The translations under genes were made by a program, and so were the position numbers. From Sulfolobaceae archaeon (GTDB lineage Archaea; Thermoproteota; Thermoprotei_A; Sulfolobales; Sulfolobaceae), in contig JAWARQ010000002.1 in NCBI GenBank assembly GCA_038893355.1, positions 168,591 through 232,590 on the forward strand: a DNA stretch of 64,000 bases, in the 5' to 3' direction. Each line of letters opens with the position of its first letter. The stretch's first letter is position 1. Shown here one piece after another: positions 43,955 to 51,932 of this stretch. The notes beneath the pieces are model-generated. The model was not told the origin of the DNA. It ran no database searches and saw only the letters and a program-made list of their open reading frames with translations.

Positions 43955-44854
43955 ATGAAGGTAATACTCGGGGTACCGGATACTCGTATACCAGTATGGG
44001 AATTTGGAGTGCCTATAATGATTAATCAATTATTTTGGGATCTAGTGCCCTGGGATAATGAAACATGGGTAGATTCTGGTGGATATCAGATTCTTATGAG
44101 GAAAATAAGTATAGATATATTGAATGTTCTTAAAAAGTATAAAACTCTAGATGCTGAAGTATACATGAGTTTAGATATACCATCTGAACCTTGTAAGAAT
44201 ATGGATGAGCGAAATATTAAGAATTTTGAATTTCTATATTCTAATCTAGGCAAGAAGGTTATTCCGGTAATTCATGGGTATTTGCCGAGTGAAATTGATA
44301 AGGCTCTAGATTTCTATAAGAGTTATTCTGATACTATCGCTTTTGGCGGAATTGTTCCACCTTCTTTAGGCAGGGTTAGCGGAAGAAGAATTATGATGTT
44401 AATGTATCACTATCTGAGAAAAAAAGTAAAGTTTATTCACGTATTAGGCGCAGGTTCGCCCTTTATGAGAAAGGTTTTCTTTAATGCAGATAGCGTTGAT
44501 ACAGCGAGCTATAGGATAAAGGCAGTAAATGGATTAGTGATAATCCCTGGTAAAGGTGAAAGATATGTAGGGGATAGAAAGATTATTTGGAAAGCTAGAA
44601 GAGCGAGTAGTGAAGAACTTGAAGAATTATTTTCGTTTCTTGATAAAACTAGATTTCCTTTCCCTATAAATATTAATAATTGGATCAGTAGAGCATTAAT
44701 TAATGCATGGGTTATGTTAAATAGCGAGTATAGTGATGATGAATATTTTTTAATAAGAGAATCAAGAGCTTTATCACGATTGAGTGAAGATGAATTAGCG
44801 GAGGAGATAATGAATGAGTGTATGTCAAGAACTAGAAAGAGAATTAGGAATTAA
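43955..44854 (+). CDS. TGT-fold (queuine/archaeosine transglycosylase-like) protein lacking PUA domain
   Basis: DSGGYQ, SLDIP, PVIHG, AFGG, HVLG, DSVDT; no CxCxxC zinc motif, no PUA extension. Confidence 0.85.
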   Translation: MKVILGVPDTRIPVWEFGVPIMINQLFWDLVPWDNETWVDSGGYQILMRKISIDILNVLKKYKTLDAEVYMSLDIPSEPCKNMDERNIKNFEFLYSNLGKKVIPVIHGYLPSEIDKALDFYKSYSDTIAFGGIVPPSLGRVSGRRIMMLMYHYLRKKVKFIHVLGAGSPFMRKVFFNADSVDTASYRIKAVNGLVIIPGKGERYVGDRKIIWKARRASSEELEELFSFLDKTRFPFPININNWISRALINAWVMLNSEYSDDEYFLIRESRALSRLSEDELAEEIMNECMSRTRKRIRN

Positions 44855-45380
44855 GGAGAAAGTAAAATTAGTCAAGTCTAGAGATATTGATTTATTTCAA
44901 CACCCTATTGTTAGGTCTTGGCATAATTATATACTATATAAATGGTTCTCAAATAAGCCATATGCCTTACTCTTACCTTGTACTTCCATAAAGCCTTATT
45001 CACTTTCACGAACCCATAAAGCAGCATACTCCATATTAAAAAAGTCAGGAAGAGAAAGCGAGGTTCAAGTATATTCAATTTCGGAACCTATGTTACTAGT
45101 TCCTAGAGAGTTCGAGGAGTGTTATCCATTTAATAATTATGATTACCCTCCACATCTTATGAGTGATGAAGAGAAAGAAGAATTCATTTCATTATTAATA
45201 GAACCATTAAAGAGGATAAGTGGTATGCATAAGAAGGTTTTGGGAGTACTACCTAAACATCACTACGAAATAGTAAAGAAGGCTTCTGAGATTGCTAAAT
45301 TGAACATAGAATTAATAGCCTATGGTAGATTACCCTTTAAGAGTATATCATTAGGGATTCGAAAGCTTATTTTTGAGTAA
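44814..45380 (+). CDS. DUF5591 / ArcS-core-like protein
   Basis: LLLPCTSIKPYSLSRTH, SEPMLLVPREFE, YDYP resemble the archaeosine synthase core. Confidence 0.8.
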   Translation: MSVCQELERELGIKEKVKLVKSRDIDLFQHPIVRSWHNYILYKWFSNKPYALLLPCTSIKPYSLSRTHKAAYSILKKSGRESEVQVYSISEPMLLVPREFEECYPFNNYDYPPHLMSDEEKEEFISLLIEPLKRISGMHKKVLGVLPKHHYEIVKKASEIAKLNIELIAYGRLPFKSISLGIRKLIFE

Positions 45381-45459
45381 TACTAATTAAATTTTTATTG
45401 AAACTCTAGTATTATTAATGTAAAGAATTTTTATTTTAATGTTAAGAGGAAAGTAGTAT

Positions 45460-50100: not shown

Positions 50101-50174
50101 TAGAATTGAAAAAGAGAAAGGTGAATGAATTAATGGAAAATATAAAGAGAAAGGTGAATGAATTTGAATATTGA
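47103..50174 (+). CDS. large P-loop NTPase with helical/coiled-coil C-terminus
   Basis: Walker A ADWGVGKS, Walker B YLIDE, R in AFRERI; 1023 aa. Confidence 0.8.
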   Translation: MIREGTVVCKKRISETSAISETIYRIFQCVSSSTRYIDRLKFVRTVLDEVKRLESNRESPEIVVIKADWGVGKSTFLNLIQEFIQNKVNYRKIEFLELLRRSINVREFTDGIYLIDEVESAIDDAVKEEYKDKIVNFWLGLKELSNSRGGSIIYLSMTPTAYYKIFGPGGLLQTLFTETYPAFRERIRTIEIDPPNKLEFILIINCLMKFNEIYDTRFLRYLDLAYFVTRVDRRRYIRLFNDIICNTYPDILKFFNEIARGKVDLNDEGETVKISELAKLEKLAKSDIEVKKLYSALLARIINDDEVPKIMEGSFIKGVIIPYSDWIVLVREYNIDPRVEDFLITIVCEDNEDEIESCIKVFVTDRIREILPESIEYENYELKFKDILNIVKSKKYVYALKWSEFSNLVNTNVEEYIIEVKDKNLLEKINKFINQYLLRIDKELEGIYLFIRYITGKDVKFYKYSNSSIEIRLDKYRIILADITSRSEYEDLLNRIIVDNEIIDGILLINNEFINSNIEVINKLSKICNELSISLRIINIPISKKKQILYFLILDFYKDKIILKDKNVEKILGKIKEEIISFIEDVEKKRRIIELPLLKGGKRIDSSINWILFYPGLAMATIEDVFNTVNEIVNEKFRIYGSKQFRLEDFETERVLKDELIPYFSKNGIIKYYNGLLDFQDLLGEDFKVFTKNFAGYLKQVYKSNLSKILFNYILYISGLSQDKSFKNFENTVEKLYSKSATVEFLSYLAIASGELIRVIFDLEVVQRLKDHIDGIVKKIEYVNERFGIFLTVKKRDVGLRSLKEMRTVLLTYKHLIDEAYSKQDIQNFVRLSIVFLYLYNLYNEQIIKTEESIIKINNIISNINRKFSNLSEVKKFLGVNDELEEEKKIMEVLEKVSKYDAEDIKRVLTSLEPEDLRSKLIEKVLEGENNNTNLFLIICKLIEKVLEGERFVIPKGLNGTIFSEISNLSDIGNKISQVFSLYEEIKLNNPKIRELMLTIELKKRKVNELMENIKRKVNEFEY
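49858..49953 (+). repeat. perfect 33-bp intragenic direct repeat
   Basis: gtaaattaatagagaaagtgttggaaggcgaaa at 49858-49890 and 49921-49953. Confidence 0.9.
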
Positions 50175-50865
50175 CTATTTAAATTACAAGCTCTCAATGT
50201 TAAAGAACGAGACAGACTTTTCAAAATTAAAGGAAGAAGATAGTAGACTTACTCTAGCTATAGATAAGCTAAATAGATCTATAGAACTAATAGATAATAT
50301 TAAGCAACTATTACAAGAATTAAGAAAATTTGTAAAAGAGTTATATAAAGTAGATCCAAAAGTGGAAGAAGAGTATAAATTCATTCTTTCCGACCTAAAG
50401 GGAATCTTGAATTATAATGATCCCGAAGTTATATATTTAAAACTAGATGAAATATATAATAAATTAATAAAAAATTTAAAATATTTTAAAGATTTAAAAG
50501 TTAAATATTTAGATAATATTAAATCTGAAATTAGGTTAATAAATCAAAAACTTCTTATTTATCAGAAAATATATATAAAAATAATCAATAAGGAAATAGA
50601 TATTAAGTTTTTCAGTGAGGAACTTGATAATGTTGAAGATTTGTTAAGGATTAGAGAAGAGGCATTAAATAAGTTGAAAGAGTTACACTATTTGACTGTT
50701 CAAGAATTAAAATCGATATCGGATATGAACGAGGAAGAACTCGAGTTAATTATACAATTATTAGATAAAGGAGAAATAAAAATAAATAAAAGAAATATAA
50801 ATAAAGTAATAAAAGTAATAAAATTATTGATCGAAAAGGGGTTAAATTTACAGGTGAAATTATGA
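50158..50865 (+). CDS. coiled-coil hypothetical protein
   Basis: Heptad-like L/I-K/E-rich sequence; overlaps both neighbours. Confidence 0.8.
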   Translation: MNLNIDYLNYKLSMLKNETDFSKLKEEDSRLTLAIDKLNRSIELIDNIKQLLQELRKFVKELYKVDPKVEEEYKFILSDLKGILNYNDPEVIYLKLDEIYNKLIKNLKYFKDLKVKYLDNIKSEIRLINQKLLIYQKIYIKIINKEIDIKFFSEELDNVEDLLRIREEALNKLKELHYLTVQELKSISDMNEEELELIIQLLDKGEIKINKRNINKVIKVIKLLIEKGLNLQVKL

Positions 50866-51932
50866 TCAAAGATATCGTAGAAAAAATAGAAATGATTGCA
50901 AAAAAAGAAGCAGAAAATAGAAGAAGTATTTTATCACAAATTGAGTTATTATATGATGATATTACTAATGAAAACCTTCATCTTAAATTTATTGAAATAA
51001 GAAATGAGGACGTAAGAGATCATATCGCATGTGGAGTTGATGGGAGTAAATATGAAGTTGAGTTAGAGGATGTAACTATCGTATTAGCAAAATCGGTTAT
51101 AGTTGAAGGTGATTATACCTCTCGGAGGGCAGTTCCTAAGCATCTTAAGGAAGATTTCAAAATTTTAGGAAATCATTACGGTAAAGTCAATATTACTAAT
51201 AGCTCTACATTGTTAATGTTGGATCTAGAGACTAACATGCTTGAAAAGTGTGAAGAATGTAATGTCATATTTATTGATGGACCTATTATTGAGCCACCGT
51301 ACTATAACTCAAATGAAATTAAAATTGAAGGATTTCCTAATTTCAATGATTTAGTAAAATATAGAGCGAAAATTATAAAAAAATTAAAAAATACTAAAAA
51401 TATAATAGGAATAGTTAAGAATTTTTATCATAGGTTTCTCATTAATCTTCTAGTGGATGAAGGGTATAGAAAATTAATGCATGCAAGGGAATCATATTTA
51501 GTAAATAATTTATTTATGAAGTACAGAAATGAAAATAAATATCAAGGTACTTTATTATTAGGTATAATAAATTGGGATGATGTAAAACAAAAGATAAAGT
51601 TAAGCGATCTAGAATTTTTACTAGATGTATACTTGAAATATAAGAACGAGGATATGAGTATTAGCGTAAGTAGTTTATACTTTCAATTAAATACAATATC
51701 TCCTATAGTTAGGATAGATTTAATACGAAGTAGTAGCGATGAGGAGATTATTTCGCAATTAAATTACGTAAAGGTATGGAGTGTTAGTGGAATTAGGGAA
51801 GTTACGCTTCTCACTAAATTAGCTGATGAATATTCTTCCATAACTTCTAAAGATGCAGAAAATTATATTAAATTATTTAAATTATTTTATAACAGTGAAT
51901 ATAATAAAAATATCAATATTTTAAAAGTTTAA
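50862..51932 (+). CDS. NurA-domain nuclease paralogue
   Basis: GVDGS, FIDGP, IGIVK, RID, LADEYS NurA-type motifs. Confidence 0.85.
   Translation: MIKDIVEKIEMIAKKEAENRRSILSQIELLYDDITNENLHLKFIEIRNEDVRDHIACGVDGSKYEVELEDVTIVLAKSVIVEGDYTSRRAVPKHLKEDFKILGNHYGKVNITNSSTLLMLDLETNMLEKCEECNVIFIDGPIIEPPYYNSNEIKIEGFPNFNDLVKYRAKIIKKLKNTKNIIGIVKNFYHRFLINLLVDEGYRKLMHARESYLVNNLFMKYRNENKYQGTLLLGIINWDDVKQKIKLSDLEFLLDVYLKYKNEDMSISVSSLYFQLNTISPIVRIDLIRSSSDEEIISQLNYVKVWSVSGIREVTLLTKLADEYSSITSKDAENYIKLFKLFYNSEYNKNINILKV

Follow-up and report, generated by a model that had tools for sequence, protein, structure and literature searches.

What do a pair of proteins that resemble 7-deazaguanine-handling enzymes do beside a HerA- and NurA-type ATPase and nuclease set in a thermophilic archaeon? 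The question is raised by six genes, g1 to g6 (43955..51932, + strand), in a 64,000-nucleotide stretch of a Sulfolobaceae genome (assembly GCA_038893355.1, contig JAWARQ010000002.1, positions 168,591 to 232,590; hereafter the window), the source genome (G000) comprising 1.40 Mb in 17 contigs and being 84% complete. A preliminary description made from the sequence had noted that the six genes are co-directional and overlap or lie at most 11 bp apart save for one 79-bp gap, which the list of open reading frames (ORFs) bears out: g1 and g2 overlap by 41 bp, g2 and g3 are separated by 79 bp and g3 and g4 by 11 bp, and g4 and g5 overlap by 17 bp and g5 and g6 by 4 bp. They form two modules, g1-g2, a putative writer, and g3-g6, a putative effector. 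The reading that we favour, with a probability of roughly 0.45, is that module 1 marks DNA, module 2 destroys DNA without the mark, and viral copies of module 1 allow escape.

The case that the modules belong together begins with their distribution. Among 47 Sulfolobaceae genomes, the source genome included, g4 was present in 30 and g1 in the same 30, neither was present in 17, and none of the 47 held one module alone (G211 gave an extra g1 remnant of 25 bits and no g4). No more than about 3.3 kb separates the two genes in 17 of the 30 genomes, which span five genera, and they are clearly apart in 12; the arrangement in G216, where both genes touch contig ends, was left uncounted. All 12 genomes with separated genes keep both, and in these a single deletion could not have removed the two together. 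All six genes stand in window order in 8 of 18 fetched Sulfolobaceae g1 loci, g1 and g2 are at most about 3 kb apart in 17 of the 18, and the order HerA-g4-(g5)-NurA is intact in every separated g4 locus (10/10). On a one-marker tree built from GAT-QueC (46 genomes; G210, in which only a short QueC was found, was left out), the joint g1/g4 state changes at least 5 times. We consider it probable that the two modules are functionally linked.

The strongest independent evidence for this linkage is contig L124 (NZ_JBAMME010000175.1; 8.8 kb, 53% GC), titled as a Thermogutta sp. metagenome-assembled genome (MAG), which carries in one direction a DUF5591 gene (50% identity to g2), a TGT-like gene (47% to g1), a HerA gene (41% to g3) and a g4-like gene, P0022, which runs off the end of the contig. 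Provided that the bin label is correct, one and the same gene set has stayed together over a very wide phylogenetic and compositional distance. A metagenome scan with an alignment-based profile returned 16 loci, all Sulfolobaceae-like and none from a new lineage, and a scan with P0022 gave no match. Another contig of the Thermogutta-titled MAG, L125 (G221:C256:1-3775), holds a row of DruA (a Druantia-type protein, 260 bits), NurA (25 bits) and HerA-like genes; its NurA was considered as the missing end of the L124 cassette and rejected, as it belongs to this separate DruA-NurA-HerA set.

The two modules are joined in the window by the 79-bp A/T-rich spacer (45381..45459, + strand, read by eye), in which an A/T-rich, TATA-like run some 20-30 bp ahead of the ATG of g3 and a GAGG near -13, both also seen by eye, make the spacer a plausible candidate for an internal promoter and ribosome site before g3. 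The distance between g2 and HerA, usually about 0.05-0.2 kb, reaches about 1.7 kb in metagenome locus L131 (6673-8404), and G212 shows a similar extra 1 kb.

The first gene, g1 (43955..44854, + strand, 299 amino acids), encodes a minimal TGT-superfamily protein of the archaeal-virus 'DpdA' type. Pfam missed it (0 families) and NCBIfam arcTGT reached only 24 bits; the TGT-like assignment made in the preliminary description nevertheless stands on a PHROG match, a profile match and the predicted fold. Against PHROG, g1 matched phrog_887 'queuine tRNA-ribosyltransferase' with 139 bits (E 4e-40), and a profile of 16 g1 sequences reached arcTGT 1iq8 in the PDB (E 2.5e-4), with the segments VDSGGYQ, LDIP, HvlGaGsP and DsvDtstY aligned. 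Residues D40, D74 and D182 are invariant in 16/16 sequences and align with the DSG, LDIP and D..DS motifs of 1iq8; the three TGT aspartates act as general acid/base, in base recognition and as nucleophile (PMC10164549). The AlphaFold model of g1 (pLDDT 80, pTM 0.82) retrieved TGT-family structures for all of its top 50 Foldseek hits, the best being again 1iq8 (E 4.6e-8, probability 1.00, TMq 0.54), with bacterial and human TGT, Cap10 (rank 16) and DpdA 7ui4 (rank 23) also in the list. The protein thus has a predicted TIM-barrel fold and the three active-site aspartates of the superfamily, and does not have its zinc site: it contains only two cysteines (80 and 289) and no CxCxxC, and the 16-sequence alignment has no invariant cysteine column. 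Membership of the bacterial DpdA family did not emerge either, 7ui4 aligning over 183 columns only (TMq 0.39), and no DpdA-type PADLOC or NCBIfam match was obtained at E ≤ 0.01, although whether either collection holds DpdA models was not checked. By sequence, g1 belongs with the viral DpdA family (phrog_887; STSV2_15), for which the DNA activity of that archaeal branch is itself deduced in the literature from dCDG in STSV2 DNA. Within Sulfolobaceae, g1 identity is 52-63%, and neither g1 nor g2 has a PUA domain.

Next to it, g2 (44814..45380, + strand, 188 amino acids) encodes an ArcS2-type protein. The preliminary description had called it DUF5591/ArcS-like, and PF17884 (DUF5591) indeed scored 67.8 bits against a cut-off of 26. 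The match to NCBIfam ArcS alpha (72.9 bits) covers profile positions 271-415 of 575 only, and the protein consists of the DUF5591 (ArcS C1) core alone, the Nt, C2 and PUA domains being absent. The ArcS C1 motif PC-x3-KPY-x2-S-x2-H (PMC10516641) is invariant in 13/13 g2 sequences, whose mutual identity is 49-59%, so that g2 combines the marks of ArcS2: the C1 domain alone, the ArcS motif and no PUA. Its PHROG match is phrog_34505 (219 bits), and it shares 55-57% identity with the gene beside the viral TGT-like gene of STSV1, STSV2 and STSV4 (56.6% with STSV2_16). The source genome carries a separate canonical arcTGT (262 bits), and g2 is its sole DUF5591 gene. The QueC family was matched in 47/47 Sulfolobaceae genomes, including the 17 without g1 and g2; in 46 of them the QueC ORF has 458-491 amino acids, a length from which we infer GAT-QueC. 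Because canonical arcTGT and the QueC family are already present, a role of g1 and g2 in tRNA archaeosine is unnecessary. Because of the 60% and 56% identity to STSV2_15 and STSV2_16, the lack of PUA, the genome's own arcTGT and the presence of QueC in all genomes, the comparison supports g1 and g2 as being of the DpdA/ArcS2 type rather than tRNA enzymes.

The viral counterparts bear directly on what this pair may do. STSV2_15 and STSV2_16 have been named DpdA and ArcS2, and STSV2 DNA contains dCDG at 0.04% of G, which the account of Cui et al. leaves unexplained (PMC10516641). In the same source, DpdA2 and ArcS of Vibrio phage nt-1 put dG+ into plasmid DNA (PMC10516641), and Hutinet et al. 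listed archaeal viruses with deazaguanine-pathway genes that include 12 Ligamenvirales and 2 Bicaudaviridae (PMC6884629). In tblastn searches, g1 shared 60-61% identity with STSV1, STSV2 and STSV4 (60.5% over 88% of g1 for STSV2_15) and 37-40% with SIRV rudiviruses, and 44 records of the phage collection matched, the match spanning 80% of g1 or more in 35. The DpdA and ArcS2 genes of STSV1/2/4 resemble g1 and g2 in overlap, gene order and ArcS motif as well as in identity; in the SIRV ORF310 family, the TGT-like gene has no g2 partner. The viral copies have thymidylate synthase, methyltransferase and virus-specific genes for neighbours, HerA and NurA being absent, and are thought to protect viral DNA, whereas the host copies lie on the chromosome and go with module 2. 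In a g1 tree of 24 rows, STSV2 and STSV4 fall inside a host clade (support 100/97) made up of two genus-g5 and two genus-g2 genomes, a nesting that indicates transfer between hosts and viruses, and a third genus-g2 genome, G149 (L038), is placed elsewhere. SIRV2 sits on a very long branch, and its placement is unsure. In the genus-g2 genomes G065 (L043) and G013 (L047), g1 groups with genus g5 and STSV and not with the congener G149, and the g1/g2 pair is unlinked from module 2; this pair may have been replaced through a virus. In SIRV2 (L078, 1793-3933), TGT-like ORF310 comes directly after ORF399, annotated as an amino acid permease, three genes from the AcrID1 anti-CRISPR gene; ORF399 might import a deazaguanine base.

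Module 2 begins with g3 (45460..47091, + strand, 543 amino acids) and ends with g6 (50862..51932, + strand, 356 amino acids), which the preliminary description had named HerA and NurA; both family assignments hold, in each case for a paralogue. For g3, a HerA/FtsK-type hexameric ATPase, PF01935 (HerA/DUF87) scored 109 bits (cut-off 23.2), and the protein has a Walker A (GETGSGKS) and an IEEAQ box. Its NCBIfam scores were 86 bits for HerA_Thermprot (cut-off 800), 68 for helicase_HerA (cut-off 970), 61 for CedD (cut-off 600) and 51-54 for the anti-phage HerA models (cut-offs 800-850). Because the domain is present and the equivalog cut-offs lie far above these scores, g3 is a HerA-family paralogue and neither the canonical repair HerA nor CedD. 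Thirteen HerA-type PADLOC models matched it with scores of up to 106 bits, and mad8 with 55 bits; no homologue was found in 50,697 phage records, and identity among Sulfolobaceae orthologues is 58-61% in one comparison and 44-62% in another. The NurA family protein g6 (PF09376, 49.1 bits, cut-off 21) keeps D60-G61, E123, D139-G140-P141, D286 and D322 invariant in 13/13 sequences, and is one of three NurA genes of the source genome (122, 60 and 50 bits).

Between them lies g4 (47103..50174, + strand, 1023 amino acids), with an N-terminal P-loop NTPase of AAA+/STAND/KAP-like type and a long mixed alpha/beta and helical body. That g4 is an ATPase, as the preliminary description had read it, is borne out by a Walker A (DWGxGK[ST], residues 68-74) and a Walker B (IDEVE, 115-119) that are invariant in 13/13 aligned orthologues. 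Pfam gave only nSTAND_NTPase5 at 17.3 bits, below the cut-off of 34, and no KAP_NTPase match at E ≤ 0.01; the g4 profile weakly reached a true KAP protein, P0027, in the Walker A region (E 1e-5), and relatives in UniRef are named 'P-loop NTPase fold' or 'KAP NTPase domain-containing'. The g4 model (pLDDT 84, pTM 0.60) matched Avs4 (8dgf) best by Foldseek, with E 2.3e-6 but a TM of 0.11, followed by AAA+ and ORC proteins; at TM values of about 0.11-0.17, these matches explain the NTPase core only. The family is almost confined to Sulfolobaceae: a search of 1.84 billion proteins gave only 15 representatives at E ≤ 1e-30, and its profile was found in 18/26 Sulfolobaceae (f1) genomes, 0/174 genomes of other families of the order and, in a sample of the phylum, 0/385 Thermoproteota genomes outside Sulfolobaceae. 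Homologues named in the source databases come from Saccharolobus solfataricus and Acidianus species. Knock-out genetics is established in Saccharolobus, and both SIRV2 and STSV2 are in culture.

The remaining gene, g5 (50158..50865, + strand, 235 amino acids), encodes a putative coiled-coil protein according to the preliminary description; it is fast-evolving and outside known families (no credible family in Pfam, PADLOC, NCBIfam or PHROG), with 21-32% identity among orthologues and no invariant column. Its slot between g4 and NurA is filled by an ORF of 214-268 amino acids in all six listed g4 loci (L063, L065, L067-L070). A complex prediction of g5 with g4 residues 640-1023 gave a score of 0.60 against 0.00 for the best control, with at least 95% of contacts agreeing between runs and a partner pLDDT of at least 82 (83 for g5). 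Of 80 solved complexes, 58 reach the mark applied to this score, as do 2 of 110 mismatched pairs, but only seven of the former and both of the latter do so at 0.60 or below, so that the value gives weak support. On this model, g5 may bind the C-terminal region of g4 as a subunit. P0022, the g4 homologue of L124, has 1460 amino acids, about 440 more than g4, and its last 50 residues show a weak colinear match to the end of g5 (hhalign E 0.009, probability 4.6%); a g4-g5 fusion in P0022 is not established at this probability, the colinear position alone being suggestive. Both g4 (20-38% identity among orthologues) and g5 diverge much faster than g1 and g3, which, judged from the alignments, is the pattern expected of components that meet viral products.

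The favoured reading is built on the observed gene identities, catalytic motifs, linkage, co-distribution and viral homology. In it, g1, as a DpdA-like transglycosylase, and g2, as an ArcS2-type amidotransferase core, would exchange guanines in the cell's own DNA, the presumed host substrate, for what would be a 7-deazaguanine from the preQ0 pathway, which every Sulfolobaceae genome carries. Telling marked from unmarked DNA would fall to g4 and g5, as sensor or loader of DNA without the mark, and HerA would be the motor that feeds such DNA to the NurA nuclease. The presumed benefit would be antiviral: viruses would copy module 1 to mark their own DNA and escape, STSV1, STSV2 and STSV4 with the pair and SIRV with the TGT-like gene alone.

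A number of findings weigh against this reading. To judge from its sequence, g1 is without the structural zinc site, CxCx2C...H, that is conserved in TGTs and DpdA (PMC10164549). The window flanks are cellular and housekeeping in character (Sso7d-like, GTPase, MFS and GltB genes), which is not typical of a defence island, and in four genera the cassette occupies one conserved chromosomal site beside a DUF255/SDR/TENA block. The locus behaves as a stable chromosomal gene set and not as a mobile island, and with the site conserved in four genera, much of the adjacency may go back to one inherited arrangement; at the window locus, the flanks differ from this site and the six genes are still together. 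Neither is there a sign of mobility apart from L124, as g4 had no match in 72,556 plasmid records and g3 none in phages, and the label of L124, taken from a MAG bin for an 8.8-kb contig, could be wrong. The co-distribution is not statistically significant, because it offers only 2 (supported branches) to 5 (all branches) independent phyletic g1/g4 contrasts (sign test P = 0.5), and joint loss is trivial where g1 and g4 adjoin. In other families of the order, g1 homologues (30-47% identity) occur in 23/27 genomes of f2, 22/26 of f5, 5/8 of f8, 6/6 of f10 and 1/27 of f3, and DUF5591 occurs in 107/201 sampled genomes of the order; in f5 the two are unlinked, with g1 among housekeeping genes. Because g1 and DUF5591 thus occur in families whose sampled genomes gave no g4, the writer is older than module 2 and independent of it. 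A radical SAM gene beside the f5 g1 was considered as a RaSEA partner and rejected, since it is the tetraether lipid synthase Tes (NCBIfam 670 bits); ribonucleotide reductase and a ThiL-like gene are also in the neighbourhood. Among the families of PADLOC-DB v2.0.0, only g3 found a match (HerA models and mad8), each of g1, g2, g4, g5 and g6 having 0 families, and the searched literature yielded no host DNA in which modified bases had been measured. The writer-and-effector proposal of the preliminary description finds partial support in the association of the modules and in the DpdA/ArcS2 type of g1 and g2, and is weakened by the housekeeping flanks and by the occurrence of the writer without g4.

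A rival reading is a single machine for DNA modification or maintenance with no discrimination of self from non-self, in which HerA and/or g4 open or translocate DNA for g1, NurA processes intermediates, and the product could mark the chromosome or shield it, for example, from heat, damage or other nucleases of the cell. Bacterial DpdA needs an ATPase partner, DpdB, for transglycosylation (PMC10164549), the chromosomal site among housekeeping genes is conserved in four genera, g1, g2 and g3 are themselves well conserved, and both modules are always kept together. STSV and SIRV, however, carry g1 with or without g2 and have no HerA, NTPase or NurA nearby, and elsewhere in the order there are families with g1 and DUF5591 in which the sampled genomes gave no g4; the transglycosylase, therefore, does not need that ATPase set. 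A processive HerA-NurA nuclease would be an odd helper for base exchange, and g4 and g5 evolve fast, unlike a housekeeping cofactor. We regard a maintenance role of this kind as unlikely.

The modules could, instead, be unrelated neighbours, g1 and g2 acting as a split, PUA-less ArcS on tRNA or another RNA, g3 to g6 as a paralogue of the HerA-NurA end-resection repair set, and their adjacency being an ancestral accident. Some archaea encode the Nt and C1 domains of ArcS separately (PMC10516641), across the order g1 homologues and stand-alone DUF5591 proteins are common, with no linkage between them in f5, the modules are apart in 12 of 30 genomes, their co-distribution is not statistically provable, and paralogy is common, with two further NurA genes in the source genome. 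An accident does not readily account for the same four gene families standing contiguously on the 53% GC contig L124, or for the fact that no genome out of 47 has one module alone (the 25-bit remnant in G211 apart). Moreover, synthesis of G+ in tRNA is covered by arcTGT and the QueC-family gene (47/47, with the GAT-QueC-sized ORF in 46), and PUA and C2 domains are absent from g1 and g2. Mere neighbourhood is distinctly improbable as an explanation.

In type IV CBASS, which has Cap9 and Cap10, a TGT-like protein handles a deazaguanylated enzyme. That g1 and g2 are likewise not DNA writers, and either (a) put a 7-deazaguanine on, or bind it at, a protein of the module or (b) recognise deazaguanine-modified viral DNA and trigger HerA-NurA, is very improbable: the g1 model does match Cap10 (9ntn, titled 'Cap10-CdnD complex containing NDG modification'; rank 16, E 1.4e-5), the listed hit with the best target-normalised TM-score (TMt 0.49), a sensor of the mark would be useful where viruses of these hosts carry deazaguanines in their DNA (PMC10516641), and g4 weakly resembles sensor-type STAND proteins, but the likeness to Cap10 lies in the TGT fold that both have, the cassette has no QueC-like equivalent of Cap9, and the host pair is 56-61% identical to the viral pair with all catalytic motifs kept, for which the same chemistry on the same substrate class is the simplest account.

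Around the six genes, the window holds features of cellular type. A 68-amino-acid ORF resembling Sso7d/Sul7d-type chromatin proteins by eye lies 372 bp upstream of g1 (43376-43582, - strand). Further upstream, a calcineurin-like phosphoesterase (274 amino acids) overlaps the start of an ArnB-type protein with VWA and ArnB_C domains (383 amino acids, 40330-41481), the two together (39528-41481, + strand) looking like part of the archaellum regulatory network; with the Sso7d-like protein and the ArnB-type protein flanking the six genes, the window can be placed in Sulfolobaceae. On the other side, a 448-amino-acid ORF (53216-54562, - strand) has a weak N-terminal match to UpsC (UV-inducible; 38 bits against a cut-off of 800) and no Pfam family. 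The GC content is 0.25-0.26 over 48001-52000, which covers the 3' part of g4, g5 and g6, against 0.30-0.33 in most of the window; Lys/Asn/Ile-rich helical proteins could account for this, as could a foreign origin. An origin from a provirus or plasmid is unsupported, given the cellular flanks, g4 without a plasmid match and g3 without a phage match.

If the favoured mechanism is true, it would supply the host-side partner that explains the TGT-like genes of rudiviruses and bicaudaviruses and the deazaguanine in STSV2 DNA. It would also give an immune role to HerA-NurA, an essential repair machine of archaea, and a function to a family of 1000-amino-acid NTPases with so few representatives among all the proteins searched, and would amount to an independent evolutionary route to deazaguanine self-marking, with an effector wholly unlike that of bacterial Dpd. 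In its strongest form, the proposal is that this is the first archaeal deazaguanine restriction-modification system, in which a zinc-less DpdA with ArcS2 marks the chromosome and a HerA-STAND-NurA machine destroys unmarked DNA, and that the cassette has crossed into a thermophilic bacterium; we put this forward tentatively, as a version that would sooner fail than hold.

The preliminary description had not recognised the architecture as a described system, and this remains so: the PADLOC match is to HerA alone, and in the searched literature, with most subscription journals and supplements lying outside it, no paper linked a TGT, DpdA or ArcS gene with HerA or NurA in archaea. The canonical herA-mre11-rad50-nurA operon resembles the cassette in having HerA first, NurA last and two genes between, and the two have HerA and NurA family membership and catalytic motifs in common. 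However, g4 carries both Walker A and Walker B within its first 120 residues and has no Rad50 match, and g5 has no match to Mre11 or metallophosphoesterases, so that the positions of the motifs and the lack of family matches argue against a Rad50/Mre11 identity for g4 and g5, a reading that was rejected; g3 reaches 86 bits against the 800-bit HerA equivalog cut-off, and the genome has a stronger NurA (122 bits). HerA anti-phage systems (SIR2-HerA, HerA-DUF4297 and MADS with mad8) pair a HerA ring ATPase with an effector, as the cassette would, but SIR2, DUF4297 and methyltransferase are absent here, and NurA is the sole nuclease. The methylation-associated system that PADLOC terms 'mads' includes the HerA-like mad8, to which g3 matches at 55 bits. 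STAND sensors (Avs) have, like g4, a large P-loop NTPase with a variable body, although the match to Avs4 (TM 0.11) is mainly to the NTPase core.

The closest comparison is with bacterial Dpd (dpdA-K; Salmonella Montevideo, among others), in which DpdA/B/C modify DNA and DpdD-K restrict (PMC10164549). There, a TGT paralogue uses the preQ0 pathway to place 7-deazaguanines in the cell's own DNA, as g1 would do here; a second enzyme, DpdC, alters the base, where the cassette has the ArcS2-type g2; and ATPase, helicase and nuclease genes in the cluster give restriction (PMC10164549), to which the genes of module 2 would be analogous. The differences are as plain: DpdA has a zinc site and DpdA-specific insertions (the 7ui4 chain has 413 residues), whereas g1 has neither and only 299 amino acids; DpdB (ParB-like) and DpdC are not among the six genes, no genome-wide search for either having been made; and in place of DpdD-K stand HerA, a STAND/KAP-like NTPase, g5 and NurA, in an archaeal host. 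Because its effector is unrelated to DpdD-K and g1 is without the zinc site, the cassette would not be a member of Dpd but a variant of Dpd-like, modification-linked defence.

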